64,000 nucleotides of DNA from Pseudobdellovibrionaceae bacterium (GCA_018663505.1 JABJQG010000020.1:152152-216151), one strand, 5' to 3'; positions 26,230 to 63,715 are shown, counted from the first letter of the stretch. Numbers and translations are program-made. Notes: generated from the sequence alone by a model not told the origin.

Positions 26230-26266
26230 ATAAAAACAAAAAAAGGGCCTGAAAACAAGCCCTTTT
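26230..26266 (-). terminator. rho-independent terminator candidate after the cytochrome c gene
   Basis: Hairpin AAAGGGC-N10-GCCCTTT at 26242-26265. On the - strand it is followed by TTTTTTTGTTTTT. Confidence 0.6.
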
Positions 26267-26309
26267 CTCTATTTATCTAAGCCCTTCATTCACTGAAGGT
26301 AATAGCGAT

Positions 26310-42096: not shown

Positions 42097-42174
42097 AGTT
42101 CCCCCTCTTAGTTTTTATCACATAAACACTATCCGTCTGTAATCTGCAGAGTCAAATAACATTAAAATAAACTA

Positions 42175-42190
42175 TGGGCAAACTTGCCCA
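42175..42190 (-). promoter_or_regulatory. P1: 16 bp palindrome TGGGCAA-NN-TTGCCCA, candidate operator
   Basis: Read towards the 41764..42096 gene it is GTGGGCAAGTTTGCCCATAGTTTATT. This is nearly identical to P4 including the asymmetric 3' flank. Confidence 0.55.
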
Positions 42191-42720
42191 CATTCATTTA
42201 ACAATTGATAAATAACATACTGGTTTACTAGAGAGGAATGGTTAGAAAACTACCCTGCTGGGTTTTCAAAAATGCATAAGTAAACCTAACTTTAAACTGG
42301 ATTAGGGTAAACATCAATAATTCAACTGAGGTTGAGTTATTTTTATATAGTGTGGAAATTATTTATGAAAAGATTTTTAAAACTTAGGATTCTCTCTTCT
42401 ATATCAAAAATAATTCTTGATGATCTTCCAGAAGTAGACTCCAAGTTTAAAATGTAGGAAAGGCACGTTCACTTGGAATTTTTTACAATTGATAGATTTA
42501 AAACACTAATCAGCTAATTTTGATTTTCGGTTCTGAAACGCTGATATCCAATCTTTCCGATATTTTAAAGCTAGCGTTCGTGATCAAATATTAAGAAATC
42601 ATTTGTTATAATGTACATTATTTTTACAACTCAAGATATTTTACAAGATGTCCATATAAACAAGAAAGTTTTATATAAATTTGATATTATAGTAAAAATT
42701 AAATTTCTTAGGAGATATAT

Positions 42721-45706: not shown

Positions 45707-45799
45707 ACCGTTTCCCCTAGTAAAGCAATAACTATAAGATTCAAGGATGCATACAATCACAGAATTTTATTTTTAACAATACCATGAGAGTAAATATTG

Positions 45800-45815
45800 C
45801 GGGCAACTTTGCCAA
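45800..45815 (-). promoter_or_regulatory. P2: palindrome variant TTGGCAAAGTTGCCCG, candidate operator
   Basis: Read towards the gene it is ACGTTGGCAAAGTTGCCCGCAATA. This matches P5 at 23 of 24 positions. Confidence 0.5.
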
Positions 45816-45952
45816 CGTATTTATTTTTCACGTCAACAACCCAATCTCAAATATCCAAAATTTTATTTTAAGGTACTGAGATCGAGATATTTTAAGTTTT
45901 CTGTGTTTTAAAACTGGTGTTTGAGATCAAATATTATGGAAATCTTATTTTC

Positions 45953-45972: not shown

Positions 45973-46028
45973 ATGCAAGAATTTCCTTATGTAGTTCAAA
46001 ATCACCGAAAAGCGCAGGCTTTCTGTTC

Positions 46029-46048
46029 CAACCTGTTTATTTATCATT
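46029..46048 (+). repeat. E1: 20-mer CAACCTGTTTATTTATCATT shared by LRR gene upstream regions
   Basis: Identical 20-mer at 47437..47456. Both copies sit 25-28 nt upstream of a P palindrome. Confidence 0.75.
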
Positions 46049-46073: not shown

Positions 46074-46089
46074 CGGGCAGGATTGCCCA
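46074..46089 (+). promoter_or_regulatory. P3: degenerate palindrome CGGGCAGGATTGCCCA, candidate operator
   Basis: 70 nt upstream of the LRR gene start. Followed by TAGATTT, like P1 and P4. Confidence 0.45.
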
Positions 46090-46159: not shown

Positions 46160-47068
46160 ATGATAAAAAAAATATTTACAATCACAGCATTATTAAGTTT
46201 TACGTTAAATGTCCAGGCACATATAAAAGTAACACCTGGAAAGTGCTTTCAGTTTAACATGCTTGGAAATGGTTTAGAGATCACACATTATGACACGTCA
46301 TGCTCAAAGGATGTTGTAATACCACGTGAGGCGAGCGGGAGAGAAGTTGTAAGCATTGGGGAGTCTGCTTTTAGTCGACAAGAGCTGACCTCAATATTAA
46401 TCCCAGAAAGCATCAAGGTAATTAAGTCATGGGCATTTGCTAGTAATAAGCTAAAAACAGTTGAAATTCCAGACAGCGTGACGAAAATCGGTGAAGAGGC
46501 ATTTAATAGAAATAATCTGGAGTCTGTTAAGATTGGAGTGGGCTTAACTGAAATTGAGTATGGTACCTTTGCTCGCAACAGACTAACCTCAATCGATATT
46601 CCAGGTAATGTAAAAGTTATTGGGTGGGAAGCATTTACTGATAATATGTTAGGTACGTTGGTATTACCGTATGGAGTTACGAATATTGAAAGAGATGCAT
46701 TTAGCTACAATAAATTAACTTATGTTTATCTTCCTGATAGTGTTAGATCGATTAAACATCAAGCATTTCTAAAAAATAATCTTATCACCATAAATCTCCC
46801 TGATAGCCTAACATACCTTGGAGGAAGTGCTTTTGCTTATAATGACCTAGTTTCAATTGTAATACCTGTGGGGATCACAAAAATTAGAAGAGCTACATTT
46901 CTTTCAAATAAATTAAGATCAATTGTAATTCCAGATAGTGTAACCTCTATTGCGGAAAGGGCTTTTTCATATAATTATTTAAGAACAGTTGAAATTCCAG
47001 CTAACACTTCGATCAATGAGCAAGGGTTTGATTCATTTGATGATTTTGTCAAAATTATTAGAAGATGA
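46160..47068 (+). CDS. BspA-type leucine-rich repeat (LRR_5) protein, secreted
   Basis: 302 aa. Signal peptide. About 10 tandem ~23-aa repeats of the type IPxSVxxIGxxAFxxNxLxS. Confidence 0.8.
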   Translation: MIKKIFTITALLSFTLNVQAHIKVTPGKCFQFNMLGNGLEITHYDTSCSKDVVIPREASGREVVSIGESAFSRQELTSILIPESIKVIKSWAFASNKLKTVEIPDSVTKIGEEAFNRNNLESVKIGVGLTEIEYGTFARNRLTSIDIPGNVKVIGWEAFTDNMLGTLVLPYGVTNIERDAFSYNKLTYVYLPDSVRSIKHQAFLKNNLITINLPDSLTYLGGSAFAYNDLVSIVIPVGITKIRRATFLSNKLRSIVIPDSVTSIAERAFSYNYLRTVEIPANTSINEQGFDSFDDFVKIIRR

Positions 47069-47125: not shown

Positions 47126-47156
47126 CTTGTTTTCCACGAAGGTTTTCATCGAAAAG
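47126..47156 (+). repeat. C1: 31 nt module CTTGTTTTCCACGAAGGTTTTCATCGAAAAG
   Basis: 31/31 identical to 56781..56811. Both copies lie just downstream of + strand secreted-protein genes. Confidence 0.8.
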
Positions 47157-47182: not shown

Positions 47183-47219
47183 GCACAGGCCATGAAAAAA
47201 ATCGTGGCTATCAATCAAG
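47183..47219 (+). repeat. D1: 37 nt module with hairpin GCCAYGA-A6-TCGTGGC
   Basis: GCACAGGCCATGAAAAAAATCGTGGCTATCAATCAAG. Second copy at 48323..48359 (35/37). Each lies 80-115 nt after an LRR gene stop. Confidence 0.75.
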
Positions 47220-47375
47220 TAGTTTGACCTGCGCCCCTCTGCTGAGACACTGTCCAGGATTCATTCAGGTTTATAGTTAAATTTTGAATGCTAAATCTTT
47301 CTAATAAATCGGTGGACTTTTTCTAAACTAGTAAATTTAGATACCTGAAAATCAATGTTTTGAATCACAGAGAAG

Positions 47376-47432
47376 AAAGGTACTGACACACTTCTGAGAC
47401 ACGGTGGGTCTCAGAAGTGTGTCAGTACCTTT
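47376..47432. repeat. B1: type B perfect hairpin (25 bp stem, 7 nt loop)
   Basis: AAAGGTACTGACACACTTCTGAGAC-ACGGTGG-GTCTCAGAAGTGTGTCAGTACCTTT. I verified the arm complementarity base by base. Confidence 0.9.
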
Positions 47433-47436
47433 CCTT

Positions 47437-47456: not shown

Positions 47457-47484
47457 TGTTTTCCGACTGTGAAAAAAATATAGG

Positions 47485-47500
47485 TGGGCAAACTTGCCCA
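47485..47500 (+). promoter_or_regulatory. P4: 16 bp palindrome TGGGCAAACTTGCCCA, candidate operator
   Basis: 128 nt upstream of the second LRR gene. Perfect 7 bp arms. The flank ATAGTTTATT is shared with P1. Confidence 0.55.
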
Positions 47501-47628
47501 TAGTTTATTGTAGATCAATTTTTGTTTTCATCTACTCTTATGATATATTACATTTTAAGAGCGTGATTAAAATTTTCTACTCTTGAATAAATATTTAGAA
47601 AATATGAACAAAATGAAAAGGATATTTT

Positions 47629-48240
47629 ATGAAAGAAATTATTTTTGGATTAACACTTTTGACCTCACTGATATCATTTGGGGAGGTACCTGGCAGTACT
47701 GAACATATTGAGCCTGGCGCCTTTTCTAGCCTAATATCTCTTGAGCAGGTCGATCTTAGCAACGCAAGCTCACCGACCACCCCTACTGAGTGTTTTCAAT
47801 TTGCTGAACTCGAAAACGATATTATTATTACTGCTTATTTTCAATGGAGGGGTGATGAATGCACAAAGGATGTTTCAATACCTTCTCATATTAATGGTAA
47901 AAGAGTTACCACTATCGGGTATAAAGCACTTAATGAATTAGGGCTTACATCTTTGAAACTACCTAATACTATAACTTTAATTGAAGGTTATGCATGCTCT
48001 CAAAACAACATCAAAGACTTGGTAATACCGAGCAGTGTCATTTTTATTGGCTATGGTGCTTTTTTAAATAATCCTCAACTATCTAAGTTGACTCTTTCTG
48101 GTCAACTTAAAGTGATTAGCAATCGGGCATTCAGAGATACTAATTTAAGTACTATAGAAGTTTTCCATTTAACACAAGAGAACTCAGATTCGTTTGATGA
48201 CGACGTAGAAATTGTAAAGAAATATACTCGTGAATTTTAG
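47629..48240 (+). CDS. BspA-type leucine-rich repeat (LRR_5) protein, secreted (short paralog)
   Basis: 203 aa. Shares ECFQF..C.KDV.IP....G..V..IG and a C-terminal DSFDD.V.I block with the 46160 gene. Confidence 0.75.
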   Translation: MKEIIFGLTLLTSLISFGEVPGSTEHIEPGAFSSLISLEQVDLSNASSPTTPTECFQFAELENDIIITAYFQWRGDECTKDVSIPSHINGKRVTTIGYKALNELGLTSLKLPNTITLIEGYACSQNNIKDLVIPSSVIFIGYGAFLNNPQLSKLTLSGQLKVISNRAFRDTNLSTIEVFHLTQENSDSFDDDVEIVKKYTREF

Positions 48241-48322: not shown

Positions 48323-48359
48323 GCACAGGCCACGAAAAAAATCGTGGCTATGAATCAAG
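48323..48359 (+). repeat. D2: second copy of the 37 nt D module
   Basis: GCACAGGCCACGAAAAAAATCGTGGCTATGAATCAAG. Confidence 0.75.
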
Positions 48360-52613: not shown

Positions 52614-53777
52614 ATGAATTTAATGACAATAATACCCAATTCTAAAAAAATTAGATGGGTCCTTCTGCTATTTATAGTTTTTTTACAAGCATTACCATAT
52701 AAAGCACATTCTTCTTTAAGTTGTAAGATACTTTTTTCTGGACTTAAAATCTCTGAATTTGGTGATGGAGGGGTTACAGTAAACAATGTCGCTGTTACAG
52801 GAAAATACGAATACAATACCTATACTGTAGCACAAAATCTGAAATTAAAAACAGAAGAACTTACTGAGTGGGCTTCCAATGACTTAAAAGTTCTTTCCAT
52901 AGCTGAAGGGGTTAGTGGCCTATTGCCAACAATGCTAAGTTACGGTGTCAATGCTAAAGCATTAGACTTATGGTACAATGGTAAGGATTACGTTAATAAT
53001 CATATAGGTATTCAAATGTTTGAATTTGTCCAAAATTATAGAAATTACCTAATTCGTGGAGATGCCAGATCAATGCCCATTGAAAGTAATTCTATTGATA
53101 TAGTTCTAAGTCATAGACTTTTTAATAACATAAATAATAATTCTGTAATGGAAGTCGTTTACGATGTCCTTAGAATATTAAAACCTGGAGGAGAAGCTCG
53201 ATTTGATGCTAGTCCTGAAACCGCAAAATACGTTTTGAGAGAATTAGATTTAATTGAACAAAAAGATACAATTTCTTCATTTGAAAATAATTTACTCATT
53301 ATAAAAAAATTAGGTTCAAGAAAGGTTCATGAAATCAGTTTTCCAAAACAGAAGTCCATTCATATTTCACAGATCACACCAATTGTCCTCGATCTTTCTA
53401 TCGAGAGAATTGACAAAGATGACATTGGTTCAATTCATATATCAAAGCTTAGGCCCCTTGAAAAAAAGTCTGATCACCATGAGGATAATTATTCAAAATT
53501 AGACGAATCTATGTTTTCAGATTATTTTTATGTTGCCATGAAGGCAGGTGATATATTAAATATTCATGGGGTTACTAATGAATATGCAAAGGGAATTAAG
53601 ATTTTAACTGAGGCGATTTATGATGGCATTTTTGATATTAAAATTGTAAAAGACCCTTTTATTCCTAAAAAAATTGTTAACACAGATAATAAAAGTATTT
53701 CTGACACAGGGCTAACTGATTTTAGCCATCAGTTTTCTGATTTAGGTATATTAACTATAGAACGTAAAAAAAACTAA
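52614..53777 (+). CDS. class I SAM-methyltransferase-like protein with signal-like N-terminus and unknown C-terminal half
   Basis: 387 aa. VLSIAEGVSGLLP (atypical motif I), SIDIVLSHRLFNNI and VLRILKPGGEARF resemble Methyltransf_11-type blocks. Confidence 0.45.
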   Translation: MNLMTIIPNSKKIRWVLLLFIVFLQALPYKAHSSLSCKILFSGLKISEFGDGGVTVNNVAVTGKYEYNTYTVAQNLKLKTEELTEWASNDLKVLSIAEGVSGLLPTMLSYGVNAKALDLWYNGKDYVNNHIGIQMFEFVQNYRNYLIRGDARSMPIESNSIDIVLSHRLFNNINNNSVMEVVYDVLRILKPGGEARFDASPETAKYVLRELDLIEQKDTISSFENNLLIIKKLGSRKVHEISFPKQKSIHISQITPIVLDLSIERIDKDDIGSIHISKLRPLEKKSDHHEDNYSKLDESMFSDYFYVAMKAGDILNIHGVTNEYAKGIKILTEAIYDGIFDIKIVKDPFIPKKIVNTDNKSISDTGLTDFSHQFSDLGILTIERKKN

Positions 53778-53836
53778 ATTTATTTTTTAGTGATAACCAT
53801 TATCCCATCAAAATAAAAATTTATATTAAAATCTAA

Positions 53837-53886
53837 GTTCCAACTTATTTATGGGATGCAGTGAGTCCCAAAAGTGAGCTGGCACT
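53837..53886. repeat. A1: type A hairpin, degraded left arm
   Basis: Intact loop and right arm: ..TATGGGATGCAGTGAGTCCCAAAAGTGAGCTGGCAC. The left arm reads GTTCCAACTTATTT, about 10/14 identical to the consensus arm. Confidence 0.7.
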
Positions 53887-53924
53887 TTTGCATTTTGGGC
53901 TGTCGAGCATGTAGAAAATACACG

Positions 53925-53940
53925 TTGGCAAACTTGCCCG
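53925..53940 (+). promoter_or_regulatory. P5: palindrome variant TTGGCAAACTTGCCCG, candidate operator
   Basis: 90 nt upstream of the third LRR locus. ACGTTGGCAAACTTGCCCGCAATA matches P2. Confidence 0.5.
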
Positions 53941-54030
53941 CAATAAATTTATAAAAACTTTTCAATTAACCCAAATTAGAATCAACTCGTGTTAGAATAT
54001 GTCAAATTAATTTAAATCAAGGAAAATTAT

Positions 54031-54519
54031 ATGATTAAGATTGTTGTCAGTCTAATAACATTAGTTAATATCTTTGCCTATGCCGACACTGACTACAAAA
54101 TGCAGGTAATATCAAGCCCAAAAAGTTGCTTTGACTATTATGTATGGAACGATGAAGTTAGAATTAGAGGCTTTAAGAAAAATGGGTTTAATAATACGAA
54201 TTGTTTTCCAGACCTTGTTATTCCTTCAGAAATAGATGGGAAAAAAGTTAGTATTATTTAAGATTCTGCGTTTATAGCTAAAGGGCTTAACTCTGTCATC
54301 ATTTCAGAATATGTGATGTATATTGGAGAATGTGCGTTTTGTGACAATATTCATCTTAGCTCGGTGATATTTTCTGATAGTGCCGCATTATCAATAATAG
54401 GAAGATGGGCATTCATAAATACTAACTTAACGTCTGTAGATGTCCCCTCACATGTTTGGTTTAGAACAAAAGGAACTTTTGAAGACGCCGTTATCATAAC
54501 TAGAAGTAACAGATATTAA
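54031..54519 (+). pseudogene. BspA-type LRR paralog interrupted by one in-frame TAA
   Basis: Track ORFs 54031..54261 and 54313..54519 are in the same frame. Read through TAA (54259-54261) the sequence is ..IDGKKVSII*DSAFIAKGLNSVIISEYVMYIGECAF.., a continuous LRR_5 repeat. Confidence 0.7.
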
Positions 54520-54567
54520 TTTTTTATCTGCATTTGTTTTTTTAAGTCAATTATTTGAAGGAGTAAT

Positions 54568-55701
54568 ATGAAACAGTTTAATTTTTTAATTATTATGTTT
54601 ATTGTTTTCTTACTAAACATTAATTCAGCCTATTCAAATGGCAGCTTTGGTATTAGTTACTCAATAAATATGCCGATAATCCCACAAAAGAAGACAATGT
54701 CTGATAGGTTCGCTTTTTATCAATTTCACAGAGAAGCTATGGGGATCAAAGATAAATATATTGATTATATTTGGGATTACTTAAATAAAAATATTGCTGA
54801 AAACCCTGGTCATACAACTTATGACGAAATAAAGTTAGCTTATATAGATATACTCACAATAACTCAAAAAGAGCCAGATTATGATTATAATAGGTGGTTT
54901 CTAGGCGTCTTGAGATCTCATTACTCCGATGAATATCCCCGTGATTCAGAAAAAAGCTTAATGTTAAATGTGAGTTTTGATGTCAGCCGTATCATTGATG
55001 AAGAGTTCCAATCTAAAATGAAAAGCTTAGCTTTTATATACCCCACATGTCGCATTACAGATAAGAGCAAAACAATGGCATTTAAGCTTCTGGATCATAT
55101 TATTGATATGGAGTCAAAATATAGTAATTTTCTTGCTGGGGACTTTGATTATTATGATTTTGGTATAGATCCTATTTTTCGTGCTGCGCACAAAAAAAAG
55201 AAAATGATCCTAGAGTTTTCTAAATATGAAAACTGCAACAAACCCATTGACAATTTTTGGTCACCTGAGTCACGAGTAATTTATGGTTTGGATAAAATAT
55301 TTCGAGATCTACTGGGGGAAGCCCAATACACTATAACTAAGGCACAAACAGGTATAGACGAATCCTCATGGTTTTCTGAAGAAAGGTCTAGTTATAAAAA
55401 AATGTTAGCTCGAGCACAATATCTCCAAAAAGAATTAACCACCTTACCTGAACTCCATACTGAGTATCTCCCAAAGTTTCTTAAGGCTTACGAAGAAGCT
55501 TTGATCGAGAACAAAGACCAAGCAAACATTAAGTCATCATATTCTGAATTTTATAACAAATCTATAAAGTTTTTTTCAAAGATTTCTTCTAAACCAAAAG
55601 ACGAAAGAAACATTGAGCATTGGAGGCAGTCTCTAGAATCTGCAGCTTTAAATGTGGAATCTTATATTAAAGAAATTAAAACAGACTTGGAGAAGAGATA
55701 A
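54568..55701 (+). CDS. secreted hypothetical protein
   Basis: 377 aa. Signal peptide ..NINSAYS. No recognised domain. Confidence 0.55.
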   Translation: MKQFNFLIIMFIVFLLNINSAYSNGSFGISYSINMPIIPQKKTMSDRFAFYQFHREAMGIKDKYIDYIWDYLNKNIAENPGHTTYDEIKLAYIDILTITQKEPDYDYNRWFLGVLRSHYSDEYPRDSEKSLMLNVSFDVSRIIDEEFQSKMKSLAFIYPTCRITDKSKTMAFKLLDHIIDMESKYSNFLAGDFDYYDFGIDPIFRAAHKKKKMILEFSKYENCNKPIDNFWSPESRVIYGLDKIFRDLLGEAQYTITKAQTGIDESSWFSEERSSYKKMLARAQYLQKELTTLPELHTEYLPKFLKAYEEALIENKDQANIKSSYSEFYNKSIKFFSKISSKPKDERNIEHWRQSLESAALNVESYIKEIKTDLEKR

Positions 55702-56114
55702 TGAAAAAAATACTTTTATTTTTTATACTTCTAACAAATGTTGCCCTAGCTAATGAAAACGAGAGTTCTTTCAGACTTAATTGTATGGTTAACTCCGTTC
55801 AAGATATAAGTAATCAAAGTATATATGAAATTCGATATTCCACTTTAAACGAGTCTGATTTAGGAGAACTTTTTAAAAAAAAGATGAAGCTAGTACAGAG
55901 CCCTAAAGATAAAAAAGAGATTGTAGATCTGAAGCTCCCTGTAGGTGAAGAATTTTACAGCATAGCATTACCAAAGGGTGAATATAATTTTCAGCTAAGG
56001 TTTAGCTTCTGTAGAATATATTGTGATGTTTATGATGCGGACAATCCCAATAGGTGTATAGACTGGGAATGTGCGGAAATGGAGAAAACTGAATTCTGCA
56101 GTGAACGTCCTTGA
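55701..56114 (+). CDS. small secreted Cys-containing hypothetical protein
   Basis: 137 aa. Signal peptide ..NVALA. Its start overlaps the upstream stop (TAATG), suggesting co-translation with 54568..55701. Confidence 0.55.
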   Translation: MKKILLFFILLTNVALANENESSFRLNCMVNSVQDISNQSIYEIRYSTLNESDLGELFKKKMKLVQSPKDKKEIVDLKLPVGEEFYSIALPKGEYNFQLRFSFCRIYCDVYDADNPNRCIDWECAEMEKTEFCSERP

Positions 56115-56125
56115 GCCTGCCCAGT

Positions 56126-56208
56126 AAGCTTAGGTGCCAGCTTACTTAAAGCTTAGGTGCCAGCTTACTTATGGGACGCAGTGAGTCCCATAAGTAAGCT
56201 GGCACCTA
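56126..56208. repeat. A2: type A hairpin with tandem duplication of the left arm
   Basis: The 23 nt unit AAGCTTAGGTGCCAGCTTACTTA occurs twice (56126-56148, 56149-56171). Then TGGGAC-GCAGTGA-GTCCCATAAGTAAGCTGGCACCTA. Confidence 0.9.
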
Positions 56209-56480
56209 GCTACAGTAATCTCTCAAGTATCAGTTTCTCAGAGCCTAAAAATAAAAACCTGTTTATCTAAAATTTATTTTCCGTACAAGTACAAATTCGT
56301 ATTCGTAATTGGAATCGTCTATATACTATACGATTTAGAGTCTATCTCCAGTCGCATAAAATGCTATTGGGTTTTGTTCAAGCTTTTTACACTTAGGTAT
56401 TTTTTTCAATTTTAGTAAATTTCCCCACCTAGAGTATTTAAACTTTGCTATAATGCTTAAAACAGTGAATAGGAGTCTGT

Positions 56481-56765
56481 ATGAGAATCATTTTTTCTTT
56501 AGTTTTTATTTTGTTTTCTATTACATCGAATGCCTCTCAGTATTTCCCTGAATGTGGTGAAAAAGCTGAAAGCTATGCAAAATCAATTGTTTCTGTAGGT
56601 CTTGTACACAAAACAGGTTCAGAGTTTTTGGGAAACAGCATGCTATATTCCAAGGAAAGAGAGTTATCCTTTAAAGTTACGATAGAAGGCAATAGCATTT
56701 GGGAAGTTTACGTTACTAAAAATGACTGCTTGCCTTTAAATTTAAGGCTTTTAGAACGTTTATAA
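56481..56765 (+). CDS. small secreted hypothetical protein
   Basis: 94 aa. Signal peptide ..ITSNAS. Extended -10-like TGCTATAAT at 56446-56454. Confidence 0.5.
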   Translation: MRIIFSLVFILFSITSNASQYFPECGEKAESYAKSIVSVGLVHKTGSEFLGNSMLYSKERELSFKVTIEGNSIWEVYVTKNDCLPLNLRLLERL

Positions 56766-56780
56766 ACCTGAACTAAACCA

Positions 56781-56811
56781 CTTGTTTTCCACGAAGGTTT
56801 TCATCGAAAAG
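56781..56811 (+). repeat. C2: second copy of the 31 nt C module
   Basis: Identical to 47126..47156. Here it abuts hairpin B2 directly. Confidence 0.8.
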
Positions 56812-56861
56812 GTACGGACACACTTCTGAGGTGCCGCGTGTCTCAAAAGTGTGTCCGCACC
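56811..56861. repeat. B2: type B hairpin, imperfect
   Basis: GGTACGGACACACTTCTGAG-GTGCCGCGTG-TCTCAAAAGTGTGTCCGCACC. There are two arm mismatches, and the loop region differs from B1. Confidence 0.75.
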
Positions 56862-56910
56862 TAAGTGTACTATGGGACGCAGTGAGTCCCATAAGTGAGC
56901 TGGCACCTAG
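56862..56910. repeat. A3: type A hairpin with truncated/replaced left arm
   Basis: TATGGGAC-GCAGTGA-GTCCCATAAGTGAGCTGGCACCTAG. Only 8 bp of the left arm is retained, and it is fused to the end of B2. Confidence 0.75.
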
Positions 56911-56923
56911 CTACCTAGATAAA

Positions 56924-57922
56924 CTAAACATTCATTTTTATACGCTTAATTTTATTAGGGAGTTCCTTCCTTAGGTGCTCTAACAACATTGGATTATCTC
57001 TTCTTTGGTAGAGCCAGCCAATCATGCAAATATCTCGTGATAAGACCAGATCAGGAAGAATATCTAAATCTTGATTACTTAAATCAAGATGAGTGTTATA
57101 ACCCATTAGAAGCGCGTCCTTTGCTTGAGCCGCAGCCACATCTCCTATGCGTGAAAAATACATTGTGGATGCATTGAGAATAACAGCTAAATCATACATT
57201 TGAAAACCGTACCCACAGTCATCAAAATCGATGGGGTGTATTATCCCCTTGTGCCAAAGCATATTACCAAAATGTAAATCAGCATGAATTACAGAAAGCT
57301 TTTTTGGGTTATCTAGCTCATATTTTTTCAACTTTAAATAAATCTTCTTTCTAATAGGCTCTAAAACTTTATACTCTTTCGGAAACTCTTTTTTTATGGC
57401 AGATAGAGAACCAAATGTTGGATATTCACCAAGTAATCCTTTGGCATCCCAATATTTTCTATGTATTGATGTAATGGTATTTTTTTGAAGTTTGGCGGTT
57501 AACACACCTATATCAAAAAAATTTTGAGGCTGTTTTTTATATTTAATCTGTCCCTCTTGCCAAAGTAGTACATCACAGTAACGACTTTGCCCTACTTCAG
57601 GTATATATACTTTGGTAAGTAGTTCCCCTGAATTAGATATCAAAGGTTTCTGTATTGGAATATCAGTGTTTTTTGACAAAGAGTTTAGCCACCTTAATTC
57701 TTCTAAAATAGCTTTTTTAGTATGGTAATCATGTCGGTGAATACGCAAAAGGTAACTTTGCTTATTTGTAACTATTTTAAAAGTGGCATTTTCTCCATGA
57801 TTTATAAACTTGAGTTCGTATTTTTTGATTGGATAATGCTTTAATACTTCAACAGCCAAACGCCGCAGTCTTCTCACTTGCGACAAATATGTACTTTCTT
57901 TAAAATTTTTTAGTGAATTCAA
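56924..57922 (-). CDS. aminoglycoside/homoserine-kinase-type phosphotransferase (APH family)
   Basis: 332 aa. VIHADLHFGNMLW (catalytic loop) and IDFDDCGYG (metal-binding) are APH/choline-kinase-fold signatures. Confidence 0.65.
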   Translation of the reverse strand: MNSLKNFKESTYLSQVRRLRRLAVEVLKHYPIKKYELKFINHGENATFKIVTNKQSYLLRIHRHDYHTKKAILEELRWLNSLSKNTDIPIQKPLISNSGELLTKVYIPEVGQSRYCDVLLWQEGQIKYKKQPQNFFDIGVLTAKLQKNTITSIHRKYWDAKGLLGEYPTFGSLSAIKKEFPKEYKVLEPIRKKIYLKLKKYELDNPKKLSVIHADLHFGNMLWHKGIIHPIDFDDCGYGFQMYDLAVILNASTMYFSRIGDVAAAQAKDALLMGYNTHLDLSNQDLDILPDLVLSRDICMIGWLYQRRDNPMLLEHLRKELPNKIKRIKMNV

Positions 57923-58131
57923 TAGAATCTCCCTTAATAGTCATTAAATTATTTTGGTGATTCTTATAATGCCGATTAATTAAGGTCAGAATAAGAGATC
58001 ACAATCTGTGTATTTAAATAACTCATAGTGACCTCCCGTTTAGATGTGTCCATAAAAAATGACAGCTGAAGAATAAACTGTCAAGTCTTGTGTTCGTATA
58101 CAATTAAAATTTAAAAAATGTGATAATTTTA

Positions 58132-58326
58132 TCATTTGTTAATCACCGGAAGTATAAACTCCATATGTGGTAGAAATAAATCGGGCTTGATACGAGATTG
58201 AATATCACCAATGCACTAAGTATTATCATACCCCCAAATTGATTTAGACCGTAATGCTAATTCAGTTAAGTACTTTGCCTTGGAAATATGAGCCGACCTT
58301 ATTTTGATCTTACTTATTGTATTCAT
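58132..58326 (-). pseudogene. GNAT acetyltransferase N-terminal remnant
   Basis: Hand-translated. GGAGG then ATG at 58326: MNTISKIKIRSAHISKAKYLTELALRSKSIWGYDNT, stop TAG at 58218-58216, then CIGDIQSRIKPDLFLPHMEFILPVINK and stop. The ..LALRSK..WGY.. pattern recalls a GNAT subfamily N-terminus. No acetyl-CoA-binding half follows. Confidence 0.35.
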
Positions 58327-58452
58327 TCCCGCCCTCCTATTCAGTAAACTATCCCACACAGCTTTAATTTTCAATAATAAATATTCCACTGAGTACTTGA
58401 ATGTTGATCAAGAAAATGAGGTAATTCATAATGTTTTAGGGGGTGTTCAATT

Positions 58453-58962
58453 GTGAATTTAAAAGCTCAACCAATTATAAGAGTAGCAAAACCAGGAGAT
58501 GAGGCAGGAATACATGATGCACATATGCGTTCCATCAGAGAAGTATGTGTTAAGGATCATGGTCCTGAGGAAATCAAGGGCTGGGGCAACCGAGAACTGG
58601 GCGATAGATGGATTGAGCCCATTAAAGAACATCATGTTTGGATTCTTCAAAAAAATGGAGTCATCGAAGGTTATGCTTTTATGCGAATCTATGAAAATGA
58701 AGACAACAAACATAGTCATATCCATGGGCTTTACTTAACTCCCACTGTTCTTGGACAAGGATTTGGTAAAATATTAATGGAAATGATGCTCGAAAAGGCT
58801 AAAATATCAAAAGTTAGCGTCATCCGTCTTTTTTCTTCAATAACCGCACATGAATTCTATAAAAGCTTTGGGTTTATAGACACTGAACCAAAGAAAACTT
58901 TAGAAATAGGTGGTTACCCAGTAACTAGTTATCCCATGAGTCTGGAAACTTCAGATGTCTAA
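58453..58962 (+). CDS. GNAT-family N-acetyltransferase
   Basis: 169 aa from a GTG start. LGQGFGKILMEMMLEKAK is the acetyl-CoA-binding motif A. Confidence 0.75.
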   Translation: MNLKAQPIIRVAKPGDEAGIHDAHMRSIREVCVKDHGPEEIKGWGNRELGDRWIEPIKEHHVWILQKNGVIEGYAFMRIYENEDNKHSHIHGLYLTPTVLGQGFGKILMEMMLEKAKISKVSVIRLFSSITAHEFYKSFGFIDTEPKKTLEIGGYPVTSYPMSLETSDV

Positions 58963-59503
58963 ACTTGATTTATCCCGAGTGAATATTATTGGGTGTAGTG
59001 GTAGTGGAAAGTCTACATTTGCAAAGCGTTTAGCAAAAATTTTGGATTCTAAATTTATTGAAATGGATTCTATTTATTGGGGAAAAAATTGGTCAGAGCC
59101 CACTGATGAAGAACTGTTTGCTAGAATTCAGAGAGTTGTGGATGGCCAAAAATGGGTATTAGATGGTAACTACACGAGAACAAATTCCGTTAAGTGGCCG
59201 AGAACTACAACTGTAGTTTGGATTGACACTCCTTATTTAAAAACAATTTGGCGAGTAACCACGAGAAGCATTAAAAGATTAATTTTTCATCGTGGAGAAC
59301 TATGGGAAGGCACAGATTGTTATGAAAGTTTTAAGCAAACATTTATGTCAAAGAAGTCTGTAATTCTATGGGCTATAAATCAATATGGTCGTTACAACAA
59401 AAGATATGAGGAGCAAATGACAAACCCACCATTTAAACACTTAAAATTCATTCGTCTAAAGAGCCAGAAAGAAATTGAGTTTTTTTTAACTTCCATTGGA
59501 TGA
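58955..59503 (+). CDS. P-loop kinase-like protein (adenylate-kinase / topology-modulation FlaR-like)
   Basis: 182 aa. Walker A IIGCSGSGKSTFAKRLA. Overlaps the GNAT gene by 8 nt. Confidence 0.55.
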   Translation: MSKLDLSRVNIIGCSGSGKSTFAKRLAKILDSKFIEMDSIYWGKNWSEPTDEELFARIQRVVDGQKWVLDGNYTRTNSVKWPRTTTVVWIDTPYLKTIWRVTTRSIKRLIFHRGELWEGTDCYESFKQTFMSKKSVILWAINQYGRYNKRYEEQMTNPPFKHLKFIRLKSQKEIEFFLTSIG

Positions 59504-59537
59504 TCCTGAATACATTGTTAGGCAATGATGTTCTCTG

Positions 59538-59588
59538 GGTGCCAGCTTACTTATGGGACGCAGTGAGTCCCATAAGTAAGCTGGCACC
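59538..59588. repeat. A4: type A hairpin, perfect (22 bp stem, 7 nt loop)
   Basis: GGTGCCAGCTTACTTATGGGAC-GCAGTGA-GTCCCATAAGTAAGCTGGCACC. Complementarity checked base by base. Lies between convergent genes. Confidence 0.92.
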
Positions 59589-59604
59589 TTGGAGTTTTGG
59601 AGTT

Positions 59605-60408
59605 CTAAAGTTCAAAAAAATCTACGCCATAGGAATAGATCGCCTCGTCCTTTGCAGTAGCAGCAATTTTACGGACATCTTCTATGGCTTGAATGAGGAT
59701 CTCTTTCACTTTATGGCTGTCTGATTTCGAAAAAGTTACAACAGATGAATAATGAAGATTTTCAGGCGAAGAAGTAAGGTGGTCTAGCGCTTTCAAACGC
59801 CAATTACGATGATGGCTCACAATTAAAGGGTTCTCATTTGCTAAATGAATTCTGGCTTGGCCAACGTCATAGCTTCCATTTTTTTTAATAATCAAATTAT
59901 TTTTTTCTAAAAAAATAAGACACTCTTTCACTTTAGAAATAGGTGCCGCCAACTTATTAGCGATAGCTTCTGCTGTTGCATACTCTTTAATTGAAGTCAA
60001 AATATGTGTAGCAGCATAAAGCCAGTTACTGTAGTAGATCAATTGAGCTTTTGGGTTTAATTCATAACCTTCTTTGATCCTTTGGCTCAGCACTTGGCTT
60101 TTATTTGTAATTTCCTTAAGTTTATTTTTTAAATATTTTTTGGTATTAGTGGTACCTGCACGCTGTAATAAAACTAAATTAACAAAATAGTCTGTTTCTA
60201 AATCATTAAGTATAAAATACGCACAAACCCCATAGGCTTGGTCAAAACTTAGGTCAGCATTTTTTGCGAGTATTTTAGACAAATAGGCCTGCTGGCATCC
60301 AATTTCATTTGCTAACGCACTTTGTAACCCTCGGCCTTTGTTGGGCTGAGCTAGTATCAAATCTCTTAGGTAATTCACATAGTTAGAATATAAAAATATA
60401 GTTTTCAT
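59605..60408 (-). CDS. putative HTH regulator, TIGR02147/DUF4423-like family
   Basis: 267 aa. The N-terminal Y..YLRDLI......GRGLQSALANEIGCQQAYLSKIL resembles the HTH region of that family. Recognised from memory only. Confidence 0.45.
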   Translation of the reverse strand: MKTIFLYSNYVNYLRDLILAQPNKGRGLQSALANEIGCQQAYLSKILAKNADLSFDQAYGVCAYFILNDLETDYFVNLVLLQRAGTTNTKKYLKNKLKEITNKSQVLSQRIKEGYELNPKAQLIYYSNWLYAATHILTSIKEYATAEAIANKLAAPISKVKECLIFLEKNNLIIKKNGSYDVGQARIHLANENPLIVSHHRNWRLKALDHLTSSPENLHYSSVVTFSKSDSHKVKEILIQAIEDVRKIAATAKDEAIYSYGVDFFEL

Positions 60409-60468
60409 AACTACTATTATAACTATAAGGAATAAATTATATCAATAATTAATTATAATTAATTTGTC

Positions 60469-60488
60469 TGGCAGCTATACATCTGCCA
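60469..60488. promoter_or_regulatory. inverted repeat TGGCAG-N8-CTGCCA in a divergent promoter region
   Basis: Perfect 6 bp arms. Lies between the putative HTH regulator start (60408) and the secreted-protein gene start (60525). Confidence 0.35.
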
Positions 60489-60524
60489 AGAATTACATTA
60501 AATCATTTTAACGAAGGGGAAAAA

Positions 60525-61490
60525 ATGAAAGTTATATTAATAGTATTATTATTATCAAGCGTAAAGAGTTTTGCCGGTGAGAGCAGTGGAGGAGGCAAAG
60601 GTGTACTTTGCTTAGGGGAAAATGGTCAAATCCAGTCCGTAGAAACATTGGATAGCTTTGAAGCTAAAAATCTTTGGGGTTTGGAGTATGCTGAAGATCA
60701 CATCACTTCGCCCATTCAACAAGCTCAAAATGCATTAAATCATTTAACTAAAAACAGGACCACAAGGTTCGGACGTGATAGGGATAATTTTTACACCTTG
60801 AACGATATTTACTCTAACATGAGGTTACTTGGAGGTGGAGCAAGACCTAAACCCATTGAGGATCATGATAGCCCTCTAGGCCCACCAGAGGGGTGTTCTT
60901 TTGTACAAATTGGTTTAGATACACCACAAACTAACTTTATCGTGAGTAAAAAGTTATGGGAGAAGCTTTCAAATACTGAAAAAGCAGTCCTACTCGTTCA
61001 TGAAACTATATATCGAAGATCAAGGTGGAATTACATAAGTTCTTCAAGACGAATTCGCAAAGCAGTGGCACACGGTTTTGCCAGAACAGAACTAAAACCT
61101 ACAGGTGAAGGCATTCCGTCTGACTATTGGTACTGTATTTCTAATAATGATAAGGTTTCTGGCTACCACAGTTTTTATGCCTATAGCAATAATGACGGGT
61201 TTCTTGTGCTACAATTTGAGGCCTTAGCTGGCATGTGGGTTTTTGATAAAACTCAACTCACTGTTCCTTACAAAGTAAAACCTCATGAATTAGATAAATC
61301 AGCATCACCTGCAGGCTTTGGTATTTATAGGTACACCACTAACTCCGTTATTGATGGCACAGAACCCATTTCAATGTTTATAAGTAAAGAAGGTGTACGC
61401 GAAATAGGTATAGCCTCTACTCATTCTGAACTAGAAGGGCATGGTTTCTCTTGTATTTCGAAAGACTTACTAGATGAGGGCCTAGAGTAA
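60525..61490 (+). CDS. secreted hypothetical protein
   Basis: 321 aa. Signal peptide MKVILIVLLLSSVKSFA. No recognised domain. Confidence 0.55.
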   Translation: MKVILIVLLLSSVKSFAGESSGGGKGVLCLGENGQIQSVETLDSFEAKNLWGLEYAEDHITSPIQQAQNALNHLTKNRTTRFGRDRDNFYTLNDIYSNMRLLGGGARPKPIEDHDSPLGPPEGCSFVQIGLDTPQTNFIVSKKLWEKLSNTEKAVLLVHETIYRRSRWNYISSSRRIRKAVAHGFARTELKPTGEGIPSDYWYCISNNDKVSGYHSFYAYSNNDGFLVLQFEALAGMWVFDKTQLTVPYKVKPHELDKSASPAGFGIYRYTTNSVIDGTEPISMFISKEGVREIGIASTHSELEGHGFSCISKDLLDEGLE

Positions 61491-61651
61491 AAATTATTCA
61501 CAGAGGAGTTTTTTTTAAACAGGAACTCCTTTGATCTCTAACTTTATAGTTATTATTCAAACACTAGTTTTTTTCTAAAAAATATGGACTATTAAGGCTA
61601 AGTGTGCACTTACCTACCCTTTGCTTTAATAGCAACGGGACCTGTGCATTT

Positions 61652-62395
61652 TTATATTGGATCTATAATATATACTTCTAGATCCTTTGTTACTATTAAC
61701 CCTTCTGGTTCTATAGAGATTTCAAATGTTTTTCCCTTTACTTTAAATCTAGAATGATCCAGCGTAAAGGGGTACCCAGGGTCATCATGAATCATTAAAT
61801 CTCCGTTAATTTCTTTTGCTAGTGCTTTCATTTCTTTGATGAGCTGTAAATTTATAATACTTTTTTTTTCACTTGAGACTCGAGTGTCCTCTATGAAATC
61901 AAGATATGGCCTTGCTTCAATATATTCACTAACTAATGTCGCTGCTTTTTGACCCAAGTTGTCTGTTAAACCTAAGTTATTTTCAGGATTAGTCCTAAGT
62001 ACTCTTGGTGTATTTGTCTTCAGCTTTAGTTTTCTCATTATTAAATTTAACTGCTCTAAAATATTACCTTCAACTGTAGCAATCTCAAATGTCGTCAACT
62101 TGTTGTACTCACGCCATCCCTTATTTGAAATATATATTTTATGAGTCTCAAAATTTGAAGTGGCAAGATTTAAAATCTTGTACACCCTACCCATAGAACC
62201 CGTACCCAGTATCTGAGGGCTAGGTTGAGATAGTGCTGCAAACGCTCTTATACATTTATTTTTTGATGTACCTGCTAAGCATGTGACTGAAAATGTCAAT
62301 GCTATACATAATTTACAAAAGGAAATCACAAGGGCCTTAACCTCCTTCAATAAATTAGAGTTAATACTGTAGTTTTGCATCATGAGCAATATCAT
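61652..62395 (-). CDS. secreted hypothetical protein with minimal kinase-like motifs
   Basis: 247 aa. Hydrophobic N-terminus. ILGTGSMGRVYKI (Gly-loop-like), LVSEYIEARPY (hinge-like), MIHDDPGYP, terminal VYIIDPI. Weak call. Confidence 0.4.
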   Translation of the reverse strand: MILLMMQNYSINSNLLKEVKALVISFCKLCIALTFSVTCLAGTSKNKCIRAFAALSQPSPQILGTGSMGRVYKILNLATSNFETHKIYISNKGWREYNKLTTFEIATVEGNILEQLNLIMRKLKLKTNTPRVLRTNPENNLGLTDNLGQKAATLVSEYIEARPYLDFIEDTRVSSEKKSIINLQLIKEMKALAKEINGDLMIHDDPGYPFTLDHSRFKVKGKTFEISIEPEGLIVTKDLEVYIIDPI

Positions 62396-62411
62396 GCATT
62401 AAATATGCCAA

Positions 62412-62455
62412 GGTGCCAGCTTACGGGGACGCAGTGAGTCCCGTAAGTGTGTCCA
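62412..62455. repeat. A5: type A hairpin variant, right arm switches to type B-like sequence
   Basis: GGTGCCAGCTTACGGGGAC-GCAGTGA-GTCCCGTAAGTGTGTCC. Pairing is lost beyond about 10 bp. Confidence 0.7.
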
Positions 62456-62472
62456 TTCCTAGCTTGTCTTTT

Positions 62473-62715
62473 TTAGTCTTTTAAGAAAACATTCTCACTT
62501 TTCAATGAATAACCTTTTTCAAGTAACACTTTAATCTGCTTGGCTTTTTCTCTTCCCAAGTACTCAACGCCAAATCCACTGTAAGTTTCAACTGAATCTT
62601 GTTGCACTGTACATTGTACTGTGAATTGCTCATCTGCCTCTTGGATAACACAGACATCGGCTGCAAAAACCGAGGCTGCATATAAAGTAATTATGATTAG
62701 TATTGCTGATTTCAT
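62473..62715 (-). CDS. small secreted hypothetical protein
   Basis: The track ORF runs to 62829 through hairpin A6. The start at 62715 gives MKSAILIIITLYAASVFA, preceded by a purine-rich RBS. Confidence 0.5.
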   Translation of the reverse strand: MKSAILIIITLYAASVFAADVCVIQEADEQFTVQCTVQQDSVETYSGFGVEYLGREKAKQIKVLLEKGYSLKSENVFLKD

Positions 62716-62771
62716 TTTCCCACCCACCTTTTTGATCTGACACAAGTAACATAGTGCAAAAACAAACAAAA

Positions 62772-62854
62772 GGTGCCAGCTCACTTTTGGGACGCAGTGA
62801 GTCCCATAAGTGAGCTGGCACCTAGGCATTTAAGTGAGCTGGCACCTAGGCATT
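62772..62854. repeat. A6: type A hairpin with tandem duplication of the right arm
   Basis: GGTGCCAGCTCACTTTTGGGAC-GCAGTGA-GTCCCA, then the 24 nt unit TAAGTGAGCTGGCACCTAGGCATT twice (62807-62830, 62831-62854). Confidence 0.9.
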
Positions 62855-62949
62855 CGGTACCTAAATGGAGAATGATCTCCGAGGGATTCCGGACGATACC
62901 AGATTATCCACATACCATAAAACATGAGAATAGTAGCTCAGGAGAAAGT

Positions 62950-63390
62950 ATGATAAAAATTATTTTAGTATTATCGCTCGTATTTACAGTCAGTACATCT
63001 TTTGCAGGAGCTATATTTCAAACACAAAACTATGATGGTGTTCAAGTATATGGTGGAGCAACAGAAGATGTGATTATGACTTCATTTAACAAAAACGGAG
63101 TAAATGTTCCTGTAATGATTACTTTAAAAAATAATCATAAAAACCAGCGGGCCATTGACGTTATCAGCAAGGTTGGAGATGAGAATGAAAAGATTGGGAC
63201 TGGTAAATGTGTAATGGCAAAAAAAGCCATAGTATATACATACACTTTAGCTAGTGAAATGAGTGAAGATGGTAGGTCGAGCAAGGTGGTTACCCAAACT
63301 ATTAAACAAATTGAAAATGGTGGCATAATAATTTCAGGTAGTTCAACAAGAACTTGGAGTAATTATGCAAAATTGAAAAAAACCCAATAG
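62950..63390 (+). CDS. small secreted hypothetical protein
   Basis: The track ORF starts at 62773 inside hairpin A6. ATG at 62950 follows GGAG and gives MIKIILVLSLVFTVSTSFA. Confidence 0.5.
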   Translation: MIKIILVLSLVFTVSTSFAGAIFQTQNYDGVQVYGGATEDVIMTSFNKNGVNVPVMITLKNNHKNQRAIDVISKVGDENEKIGTGKCVMAKKAIVYTYTLASEMSEDGRSSKVVTQTIKQIENGGIIISGSSTRTWSNYAKLKKTQ

Positions 63391-63641
63391 AACTTCATTA
63401 TAATTAATATTTTTAAAATATTATATTGCTCATTAAACTTATTCAAATTCTTCTATTTGAGCTTAAACTATATACCCAAATATTTAGGCCGATTTTAGGT
63501 GTTAAAGATCGTTTTCAGAAGATCTATAAAGTACTGATATTAAGGGACTAAACCACCTGCAAATAAATTGAGTTTAAAGGCACCTCCTAACAACAGGTCC
63601 CTTTCAATTCCTAGTAATATATAATATAAATATATAGAAAA

Positions 63642-63692
63642 GGTGCCAGCTCACTTATGAGACGCAGTGAGTCCCATAAGTGAGCTGGCACC
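63642..63692. repeat. A7: type A hairpin, one mismatch
   Basis: GGTGCCAGCTCACTTATGAGAC-GCAGTGA-GTCCCATAAGTGAGCTGGCACC. Confidence 0.9.
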
Positions 63693-63715
63693 TTGAGTAA
63701 CCACTGGGAGGCGGG

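Follow-up and report, generated by a model that had tools for sequence, protein, structure and literature searches.

A dispersed family of hairpin repeats of about 53 nt in an uncultured marine Bdellovibrionaceae bacterium

Where transcripts end, how genomes rearrange and where assemblies break are all shaped by short palindromic repeats, which are best known from a few cultured Proteobacteria. Here we describe a family of hairpins of about 53 nt, termed type A, in a 64,000-nt stretch of DNA (the window, throughout) from a member of the Bdellovibrionaceae lineage (GCA_018663505.1 JABJQG010000020.1:152152-216151). The closest described systems are the repetitive extragenic palindromic (REP) elements and bacterial interspersed mosaic elements (BIMEs), and the REPINs associated with REP-associated tyrosine transposases (RAYTs), of Enterobacteria and Pseudomonas. 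Like the hairpins reported here, these are short multi-copy extragenic palindromes located after stop codons or between convergent genes, with paired changes that keep the stem, with subfamilies, and with no enzyme inside the element. REP elements have an established role as RNA hairpins at 3' ends, acting as stabiliser, terminator or insulator. REP stems are short and imperfect, whereas those of the present family are 23-33 bp long and nearly perfect, and instead of a GTAG-type head there is a constant foot (A-GGTGCC...GGCACC-T). The loop and inner stem are here the most conserved part, no RAYT was found in the sequence scanned, and the host belongs to a different lineage.

Other systems share particular features with the family. 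Miniature inverted-repeat transposable elements (MITEs), such as the Neisseria Correia element, have terminal inverted repeats (here the arms of 22-23 bp), are intergenic and multi-copy, and are able to form RNA hairpins affecting neighbouring transcripts. Integron attC sites and clusters of attC sites lacking integron-integrases (CALINs) are hairpin repeats that separate small accessory genes and, as in the window, lie in one orientation. Bidirectional intrinsic terminators also place a stable stem-loop directly after convergent stops, with the A-tract and T-tract that some of our copies have, while the core sites of tyrosine recombinases (lox/dif-like) are formally alike in their inverted arms and asymmetric spacer of 6-8 bp. 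Membership in the named groups is not established: REP-RAYT fails on the GTAG head, MITE on target-site duplications, and attC on core sites and extrahelical bases.

Type-A hairpins in the window

The type-A copies of the window are as follows.

A1, 53835..53887, + strand: degenerate type A; left arm decayed, loop and right arm retained
A2, 56155..56207, + strand: intact; perfect 23-bp stem, loop GCAGTGA
A3, 56871..56908, + strand: truncated type A; inner hairpin, loop and full right arm retained
A4, 59537..59589, + strand: intact perfect hairpin
A5, 62411..62460, + strand: chimera; left outer arm of type A, inner hairpin shortened (loop GCAGTGA), right outer arm resembling type B (GTAAGTGTGTCC)
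A6, 62771..62823, + strand: hairpin with one T.T mismatch
A7, 63641..63693, + strand: hairpin with one mismatch

Pattern counts, reading of the sequence and folding agree on a repeat family with seven copies within 10 kb, as a preliminary description of this DNA had claimed, where chance expects none. The 22-nt arm GGTGCCAGCTYACTTATGGGAC gave 10 matches in the window with at most three mismatches, against 0.00 expected from shuffles, and the core GGGACGCAGTGAGTCCC occurs at seven sites at 53.8-63.7 kb, with the loop GCAGTGA on the + strand in 7/7. Four copies are intact hairpins (A2, A4, A6, A7) and three are degenerate (A1, A3, A5). This bears out the states first assigned to them, namely A4 perfect, A6 and A7 with one mismatch each, and A1, A3 and A5 with an arm lost or replaced; A2 is perfect too. 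The intact copies fold as DNA at -25 to -31 kcal/mol with z about -10 (A2, -30.8 kcal/mol, z = -10.5; A4, -27.8 kcal/mol, z about -10; A6, -26.6 kcal/mol; A7, -25.3 kcal/mol), while A1 is without a stable fold (z = -0.7) and only 8 nt remain of the left arm of A3. A4 and A2 are 100 % identical over 52 nt, and A6 and A7 are 96 % alike.

A full copy consists of a GC-rich inner hairpin, TGGGAC-GCAGTGA-GTCCCA, flanked on each side by a 17-nt outer arm module (AGGTGCCAGCTYACTTA). The hairpin itself stands as first reported, and the stem length of 22 bp does not: with the A ahead of GGTGCC and the T after GGCACC, the constant stem comes to 23 bp. It is extended in some copies to as much as 33 bp. 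The outer extensions, GAACTCYW...WRGAGTTC or A-tract...T-tract in several copies, differ between subfamilies. The tetranucleotide CTAG, which had been taken for a conserved stem foot reminiscent of REP elements and RAYTs, follows the right arm in A2, A3, A5 and A6 and in 0/7 of the copies found on other contigs (see below), and is therefore not a conserved foot.

Comparison of the copies supports a stem that is maintained: 83 % of cells pair, against 29-46 % when the partners are slid by 1-3 columns, and 16/29 pairs change on both sides, a figure reached by 0/500 shuffles. The compensatory change of a T-A to a C-G pair reported earlier is real. As proof that the stem is maintained it is weaker than was proposed, since it defines two type-A subfamilies (T-A in A2, A4, L010c and L012b; C-G in A6, A7 and L008; the L numbers denote copies on other contigs) and so counts as about one inherited event. 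Comparison of type A with the diverged type B described below gives several more paired-change events. Judging from the sequences, such symmetry can come from selection on the stem, or from copying or repair in which one arm templates the other (template-switch correction). Wobble-pair asymmetry, used as a test of RNA-level selection, gave no consistent pattern.

Loop and inner stem depart from the consensus at 2-3 % of positions and the outer arms at 8-15 % (loop, 3.1 %; right inner stem, 1.2 %; left outer arm, 14.7 %; right outer arm, 8.0 %). These figures are partly biased towards the core, since the pattern used to find the external loci included the loop. Conservation of the core holds inside the window too, where A1, A3 and A5 retain it and have outer arms that are decayed or replaced.

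Type-B hairpins and copies on other contigs

From 15 copies we built a covariance model and, with filters off, searched the entire window. Only the seven type-A copies and two diverged hairpins came back, with no further copy in 1-47 kb.

B1, 47375..47433, + strand: diverged type B; perfect 26-bp stem, loop ACGGTGG
B2, 56808..56862, no strand given: type-B hairpin (AGGTACGGACACACTTCTGAG...CTCAAAAGTGTGTCCGCACCT) abutting A3; covariance model 39 bits

B1 (AGGTACTGACACACTTCTGAGAC-ACGGTGG-GTCTCAGAAGTGTGTCAGTACCT) folds as DNA at -31.6 kcal/mol and scores 73.8 bits with the model. It has in common with type A the skeleton AGGT.C....CACTT.TG.GAC and a similar loop (RCRGTGR), and differs at about seven arm positions, all of them compensated, so that its stem is perfect over 26 bp. 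A 31-nt motif, TTGTTTTCCACGAAGGTTTTCATCGAAAAG, occurs in identical form at 47126-47156 and 56781-56811, directly after two unrelated stop codons, and at 56.8 kb it continues straight into B2.

Outside the window, a pattern scan of metagenome sequence and the covariance model revealed at least seven further type-A copies on contigs L008, L009/L011, L010 and L012. That copies occur elsewhere in the same organism had been put forward as a check on the family, and the objection that it might be confined to this stretch does not arise. Identical proteins in NCBI to those of the window and to the PpiD of L010 carry the name 'MAG: ... [Bdellovibrionaceae bacterium]', and the contig that holds L010 and L012 comes from the same Joint Genome Institute (JGI) sample (3300072015) as the contig carrying the window. 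The type-A total is thus 14 copies, all intergenic; their genomic contexts number at least four and are unrelated to one another. At L009:507-577 lies another hairpin, in which the foot (AGGTGCCAGG...CCTGGCACCT) is that of the family and the interior and loop differ.

Searches of species-representative genomes gave one real match, a diverged copy in Bdellovibrionaceae bacterium UBA1609; a match in Leucobacter was a chance hit. The UBA1609 copy (L005 4985-5068, equivalent to L007 3092-3175) has 22-nt arms that are 86 % complementary and a second left inner stem, set off from the left arm by an insert of about 25 nt, again a rearrangement adjoining the inner hairpin. About 90 kb from distant relatives and 8-12 kb of UBA1609 showed no other long hairpin of this type. 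The family had no match in viral contigs, plasmids or phages, and no Rfam family exceeded its threshold at gathering level. In E-value mode Rfam returned sub-threshold matches only, nearly all to miRNA-precursor models, such as any long hairpin gives. The hairpin sequence strings were not found in the papers searched, and a literature search returned no report of a REP-like element in Bdellovibrionaceae. A lineage-specific family is the best reading of this distribution.

Several metagenome contigs end inside or adjoining hairpins (the end of L022, the start of L017 at window 56835 and the start of L016 at window 53910), as is expected where a repeat breaks assembly.

Gene context and rearrangement at the hairpins

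Six of the seven window copies are located at gene 3' ends or in convergent spaces, and A6 lies between divergent gene starts, in agreement with the preliminary description. A1 is 58 nt past the stop of a methyltransferase gene (52614-53777) and A2 41 nt past that of a 137-aa gene. A3 and A4 both lie between convergent genes, the former 16 nt from the stop of an APH-family kinase gene and the latter 34 and 16 nt from two stops. A5 is 13 nt from the stop of an 80-aa gene on the - strand, and A7 is 251 nt past a stop and 25 nt ahead of the next gene's start. The external copies are 6-22 nt from stop codons, with 4/7 between convergent genes; in L012b the stem is extended by 11 bp and the extension includes both convergent stop codons. 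Overall, most copies lie 6-60 nt past a stop codon. A 205-aa gene call (62773-63390) starting at GTG 62773 inside A6 is probably an artefact; the likely start, ATG 62951, comes with a ribosome-binding site and has a signal peptide after it.

Two extra outer arm modules are found beside window copies.

56132..56148, + strand: left of A2, an extra outer arm module (17 nt, AGGTGCCAGCTTACTTA) in a partial tandem duplication of 23 nt
62831..62847, - strand: extra outer arm module, a 24-nt tandem partial duplication right of A6

With L008:1842-1858 these make three independent partial tandem duplications. Each comprises exactly the 17-nt outer module together with 6-7 nt of the sequence outside it; the period is 23-24 nt, and on the inner side all three end at ACTTA|TGGGAC, where the inner hairpin has its foot. 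In A3 and A5 the sequence switches at the same junction. Such a recurrent junction could be the product of slippage after a polymerase stalls at the GC-rich inner hairpin, or of cleavage at a fixed position by an enzyme that recognises the hairpin. Apart from these three duplications, no solo arm or insertion sequence (IS) end with the arm sequence was found in the 316 kb examined.

The upstream regions of three LRR_5 paralogs align with each other. In one of them B1 lies between the flanks AATCACAGAGAAG and CTTTCCTTCAACCTGTTTATTTATCATT; in another A1 is at the equivalent place; and in the remaining one (about 46005-46035) these flanks have only CGCAGG between them. Insertion or deletion thus affects the hairpin as a unit, and its type can differ per site. 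LRR_5 genes of the BspA type are located at 46160-47068, 47629-48240 and 54031-54519, the last of which is probably a pseudogene, judged from an in-frame stop near 54259.

The first 40 kb of the window encode core metabolism (cytochrome oxidase, PEPCK, CoaBC, two-component systems) and are without a hairpin. From 40 to 64 kb there are small secreted-looking proteins, LRR_5 proteins and a few enzymes (an APH-family kinase, a GNAT acetyltransferase, a small kinase). The flanks, 10 kb upstream of the window (L023) and 7.5 kb downstream (L015), hold no hairpin. A giant gene called at 8811 aa (L015 11338-17171) starts about 1.6 kb beyond the window end, after genes of 109 aa and 351 aa, and its region has no hairpins. 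No tRNA or tmRNA that might anchor an island was found. Proteins near the hairpins that lack a Pfam match, considered as candidate partners, had no NCBIfam match, and the signal-peptide-like N-termini of those inspected suggest that they are secreted.

The hairpins had been described from this accessory island, and they are not confined to it. L012 and L010 lie on one 153.7-kb contig, on which five copies occur within 12 kb around mreC, ppiD and a dksA-like gene, so the family is not restricted to the island. The order on this contig is as follows.

153.7-kb contig: 849-aa gene; hairpin (+); 346-aa and 519-aa genes; hairpin (-); dksA-like, rodA, PBP2, mreC and ppiD genes; hairpin (+); 245-aa gene; hairpin (-); 108-aa gene; hairpin (-); RelA_SpoT ... 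S8/PilZ peptidase

The orientation, + - + - -, is therefore not uniform genome-wide. The closest relatives compared have 38-56 % protein identity, and the neighbourhood is not conserved in them except for mreC-ppiD-S8/PilZ, a region in which the target has extra genes and hairpins. In two distant relatives (PpiD 38-39 % identical) the S8/PilZ peptidase gene directly follows ppiD, without hairpins, and the hairpins of the target thus bracket lineage-specific genes. Hairpin copies in general cluster adjoining such genes. The distant relatives have in common a palindrome, GGACC(T/A)(A/T)GGTCCGAAAAG, upstream of the S8/PilZ gene after ppiD (L030 11637-11666, L031 about 6724-6745).

This arrangement raises the question of whether the hairpins are lox- or attC-like sites of a site-specific recombinase, with the blocks of 1-4 genes between them as exchangeable cassettes. 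Inverted arms around an invariant asymmetric 7-nt spacer, the direct orientation of 7/7 window copies, the small accessory genes in the blocks, and the bracketing of genes absent from relatives on the ppiD contig would all suit such sites. We nevertheless consider this highly improbable, given the mixed orientation on the ppiD contig, the lack of any fixed relation between hairpin and gene orientation, with genes on both strands, and the lack of a recombinase gene (including IntI, by Pfam) within about 80 kb of contiguous sequence. The R/L boxes of attC (RYYYAAC...GTTRRRY), with their AAC/GTT core sites, extrahelical bases and unpaired central spacer, are absent, and the stems are perfect. The breakpoints of A5 and of the three partial duplications lie not in the spacer but 6 nt beyond it, where the inner hairpin has its foot, and there are no paralogous cassettes among the hairpin-bounded blocks apart from the LRR_5 genes.

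A related scenario takes the inner hairpin, TGGGAC-GCAGTGA-GTCCCA, as the substrate of a putative structure-specific DNA enzyme that would cut at the hairpin foot, with blocks of accessory genes captured or shuffled in an integron-like manner without IntI or attC. The ACTTA|TGGGAC breakpoints, the 23-24-nt duplications, the uniform orientation in the window and the bracketed lineage-specific genes are compatible with gene capture and do not require it, and we regard it as a speculation with very little probability.

Two other repeats were seen in the accessory part of the window. One, the palindrome (T/G)GGCAAACTTGCCC of about 14-16 nt, occurs at five sites, often with ATAGTTTATT after it.

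(T/G)GGCAAACTTGCCC sites: 42166-42191 (- strand), 45795-45818 (- strand), 46074-46089, 47484-47509, 53922-53945

It lies about 100 nt upstream of genes for small secreted proteins and LRR_5 proteins and resembles an operator or promoter element common to them. The other, a repeat of 37 nt (95 % identical) at 47183-47219 and 48323-48359, includes a small terminator-like hairpin (GCCACGAAAAAAATCGTGGC).

Possible origin and role of the family

We favour, at slightly better than even confidence, the explanation that the hairpins are lineage-specific dispersed short palindromic repeats, REP/REPIN- and MITE-like, which are tolerated or perhaps used as 3' RNA hairpins and are copied by an enzyme acting in trans. 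Copies would be transcribed at mRNA ends from either strand, and the stable stem-loop would then serve as a REP-like barrier to 3' exonucleases, as a pause or termination signal insulating neighbouring genes, or as both. We infer such an RNA-level role at 3' ends, as stabiliser, terminator or insulator. Multiplication would proceed by a process on the folded strand that recognises the inner hairpin and loop, with the enzyme encoded elsewhere in the genome. Selection would leave copies only where they are harmless, that is, in the intergenic spaces at 3' ends, within gene neighbourhoods that were acquired recently and are loosely packed.

Several observations weigh against this explanation. With regard to a mobilising enzyme, no transposase, integrase or Y1/HUH gene is present in about 80 kb of contiguous sequence; the earlier statement that the window has no RAYT, IS200/IS605 TnpA or integrase is upheld, as none was found among the Pfam-scanned open reading frames (ORFs) of at least 120 aa, which are nearly all of them. 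All seven window copies have the same orientation, for which random scatter predicts about 1.6 %. The insertion polymorphism between related strains that had been anticipated was not seen; there are no indels, the contigs compared being 99.7-100 % identical and too close to inform, so that we infer mobility rather than observe it. No target-site duplication was detected as a direct repeat at any offset, and flanks tend to be complementary. A U-tract is missing at A2, A3, A5 and A6 and at A4 on the - strand, A6 and L010a lie between divergent starts, and A7 is close ahead of a start codon. The bias in the core-conservation figure belongs here as well.

The last positions also show that a simple terminator role does not fit all copies. 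The hairpins might be ordinary transcription terminators, made alike by local duplication and gene conversion and not mobile, as the 3'-end positions and the local clustering could indicate, together with the identity of A2 with A4, the likeness of A6 to A7, and the paralogous positions of A1 and B1. A U-tract faces the upstream gene in A1, B1, L008, L009 and L010a/b, and on the - strand in A7; in L008, L010b, B1 and A7 (- strand) an A-tract precedes and a T-tract follows the stem. However, the U-tract is wanting on the relevant side in most window copies (A4 on the + strand is followed only by the moderately T-rich TTGGAGTTTT), and some copies are between divergent starts or directly ahead of a ribosome-binding site. 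Near-exact sequence recurs at many sites, in at least four unrelated contexts on different contigs. Ordinary short U-tract terminators exist in the core part of the window, for example at 26238-26269, which makes the hairpin family a special class and not the generic terminator of the organism. Terminators of local origin are, as such, an unlikely explanation.

Minimal MITEs, in which an insertion sequence is reduced to its two terminal inverted repeats of 22 bp with 7 nt between them, would account for perfect terminal inverted repeats in multiple intergenic copies. However, MITEs leave target-site duplications, and the present elements of 53 nt do not. No parent insertion sequence was found in the 316 kb examined, in keeping with the lack of solo arms noted above, and the stem extensions differ between subfamilies. 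An origin as minimal MITEs is on this evidence very unlikely.

Closer to the favoured explanation, the hairpins could be true REP/REPIN elements mobilised by a hairpin-flanked, single-copy RAYT (Y1/HUH transposase) elsewhere in the genome. The palindromes are multi-copy, extragenic and at 3' ends, the subfamilies resemble amplified masters, and the two inverted 22-nt units are like a very compact REPIN. A conserved inner hairpin and loop with recurrent rearrangements at the foot are the traces expected of a hairpin-guided single-strand nuclease. Against this stand the differences in stem and head from REP elements set out above, the CTAG foot that is not conserved, and the search for Y1_Tnp, which found none in loci L008-L012, among the scanned ORFs of the window or among the Pfam matches listed for two JGI contigs (about 60 kb of them). 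We therefore hold membership in the REP/REPIN class itself to be doubtful.

The explanation we favour, of lineage-specific repeats copied in trans, makes this previously undescribed family of hairpins a fresh example of dispersed extragenic palindromes, involving no new principle. Clean, very stable and lineage-restricted, with a conserved inner hairpin and modular outer arms, it adds a case from an uncultured lineage of predatory bacteria, and it could serve to mark this population in metagenomes. As it stands, no general picture is changed. Should an enzyme partner come to light, the element could illustrate repeat copying outside the RAYT paradigm.

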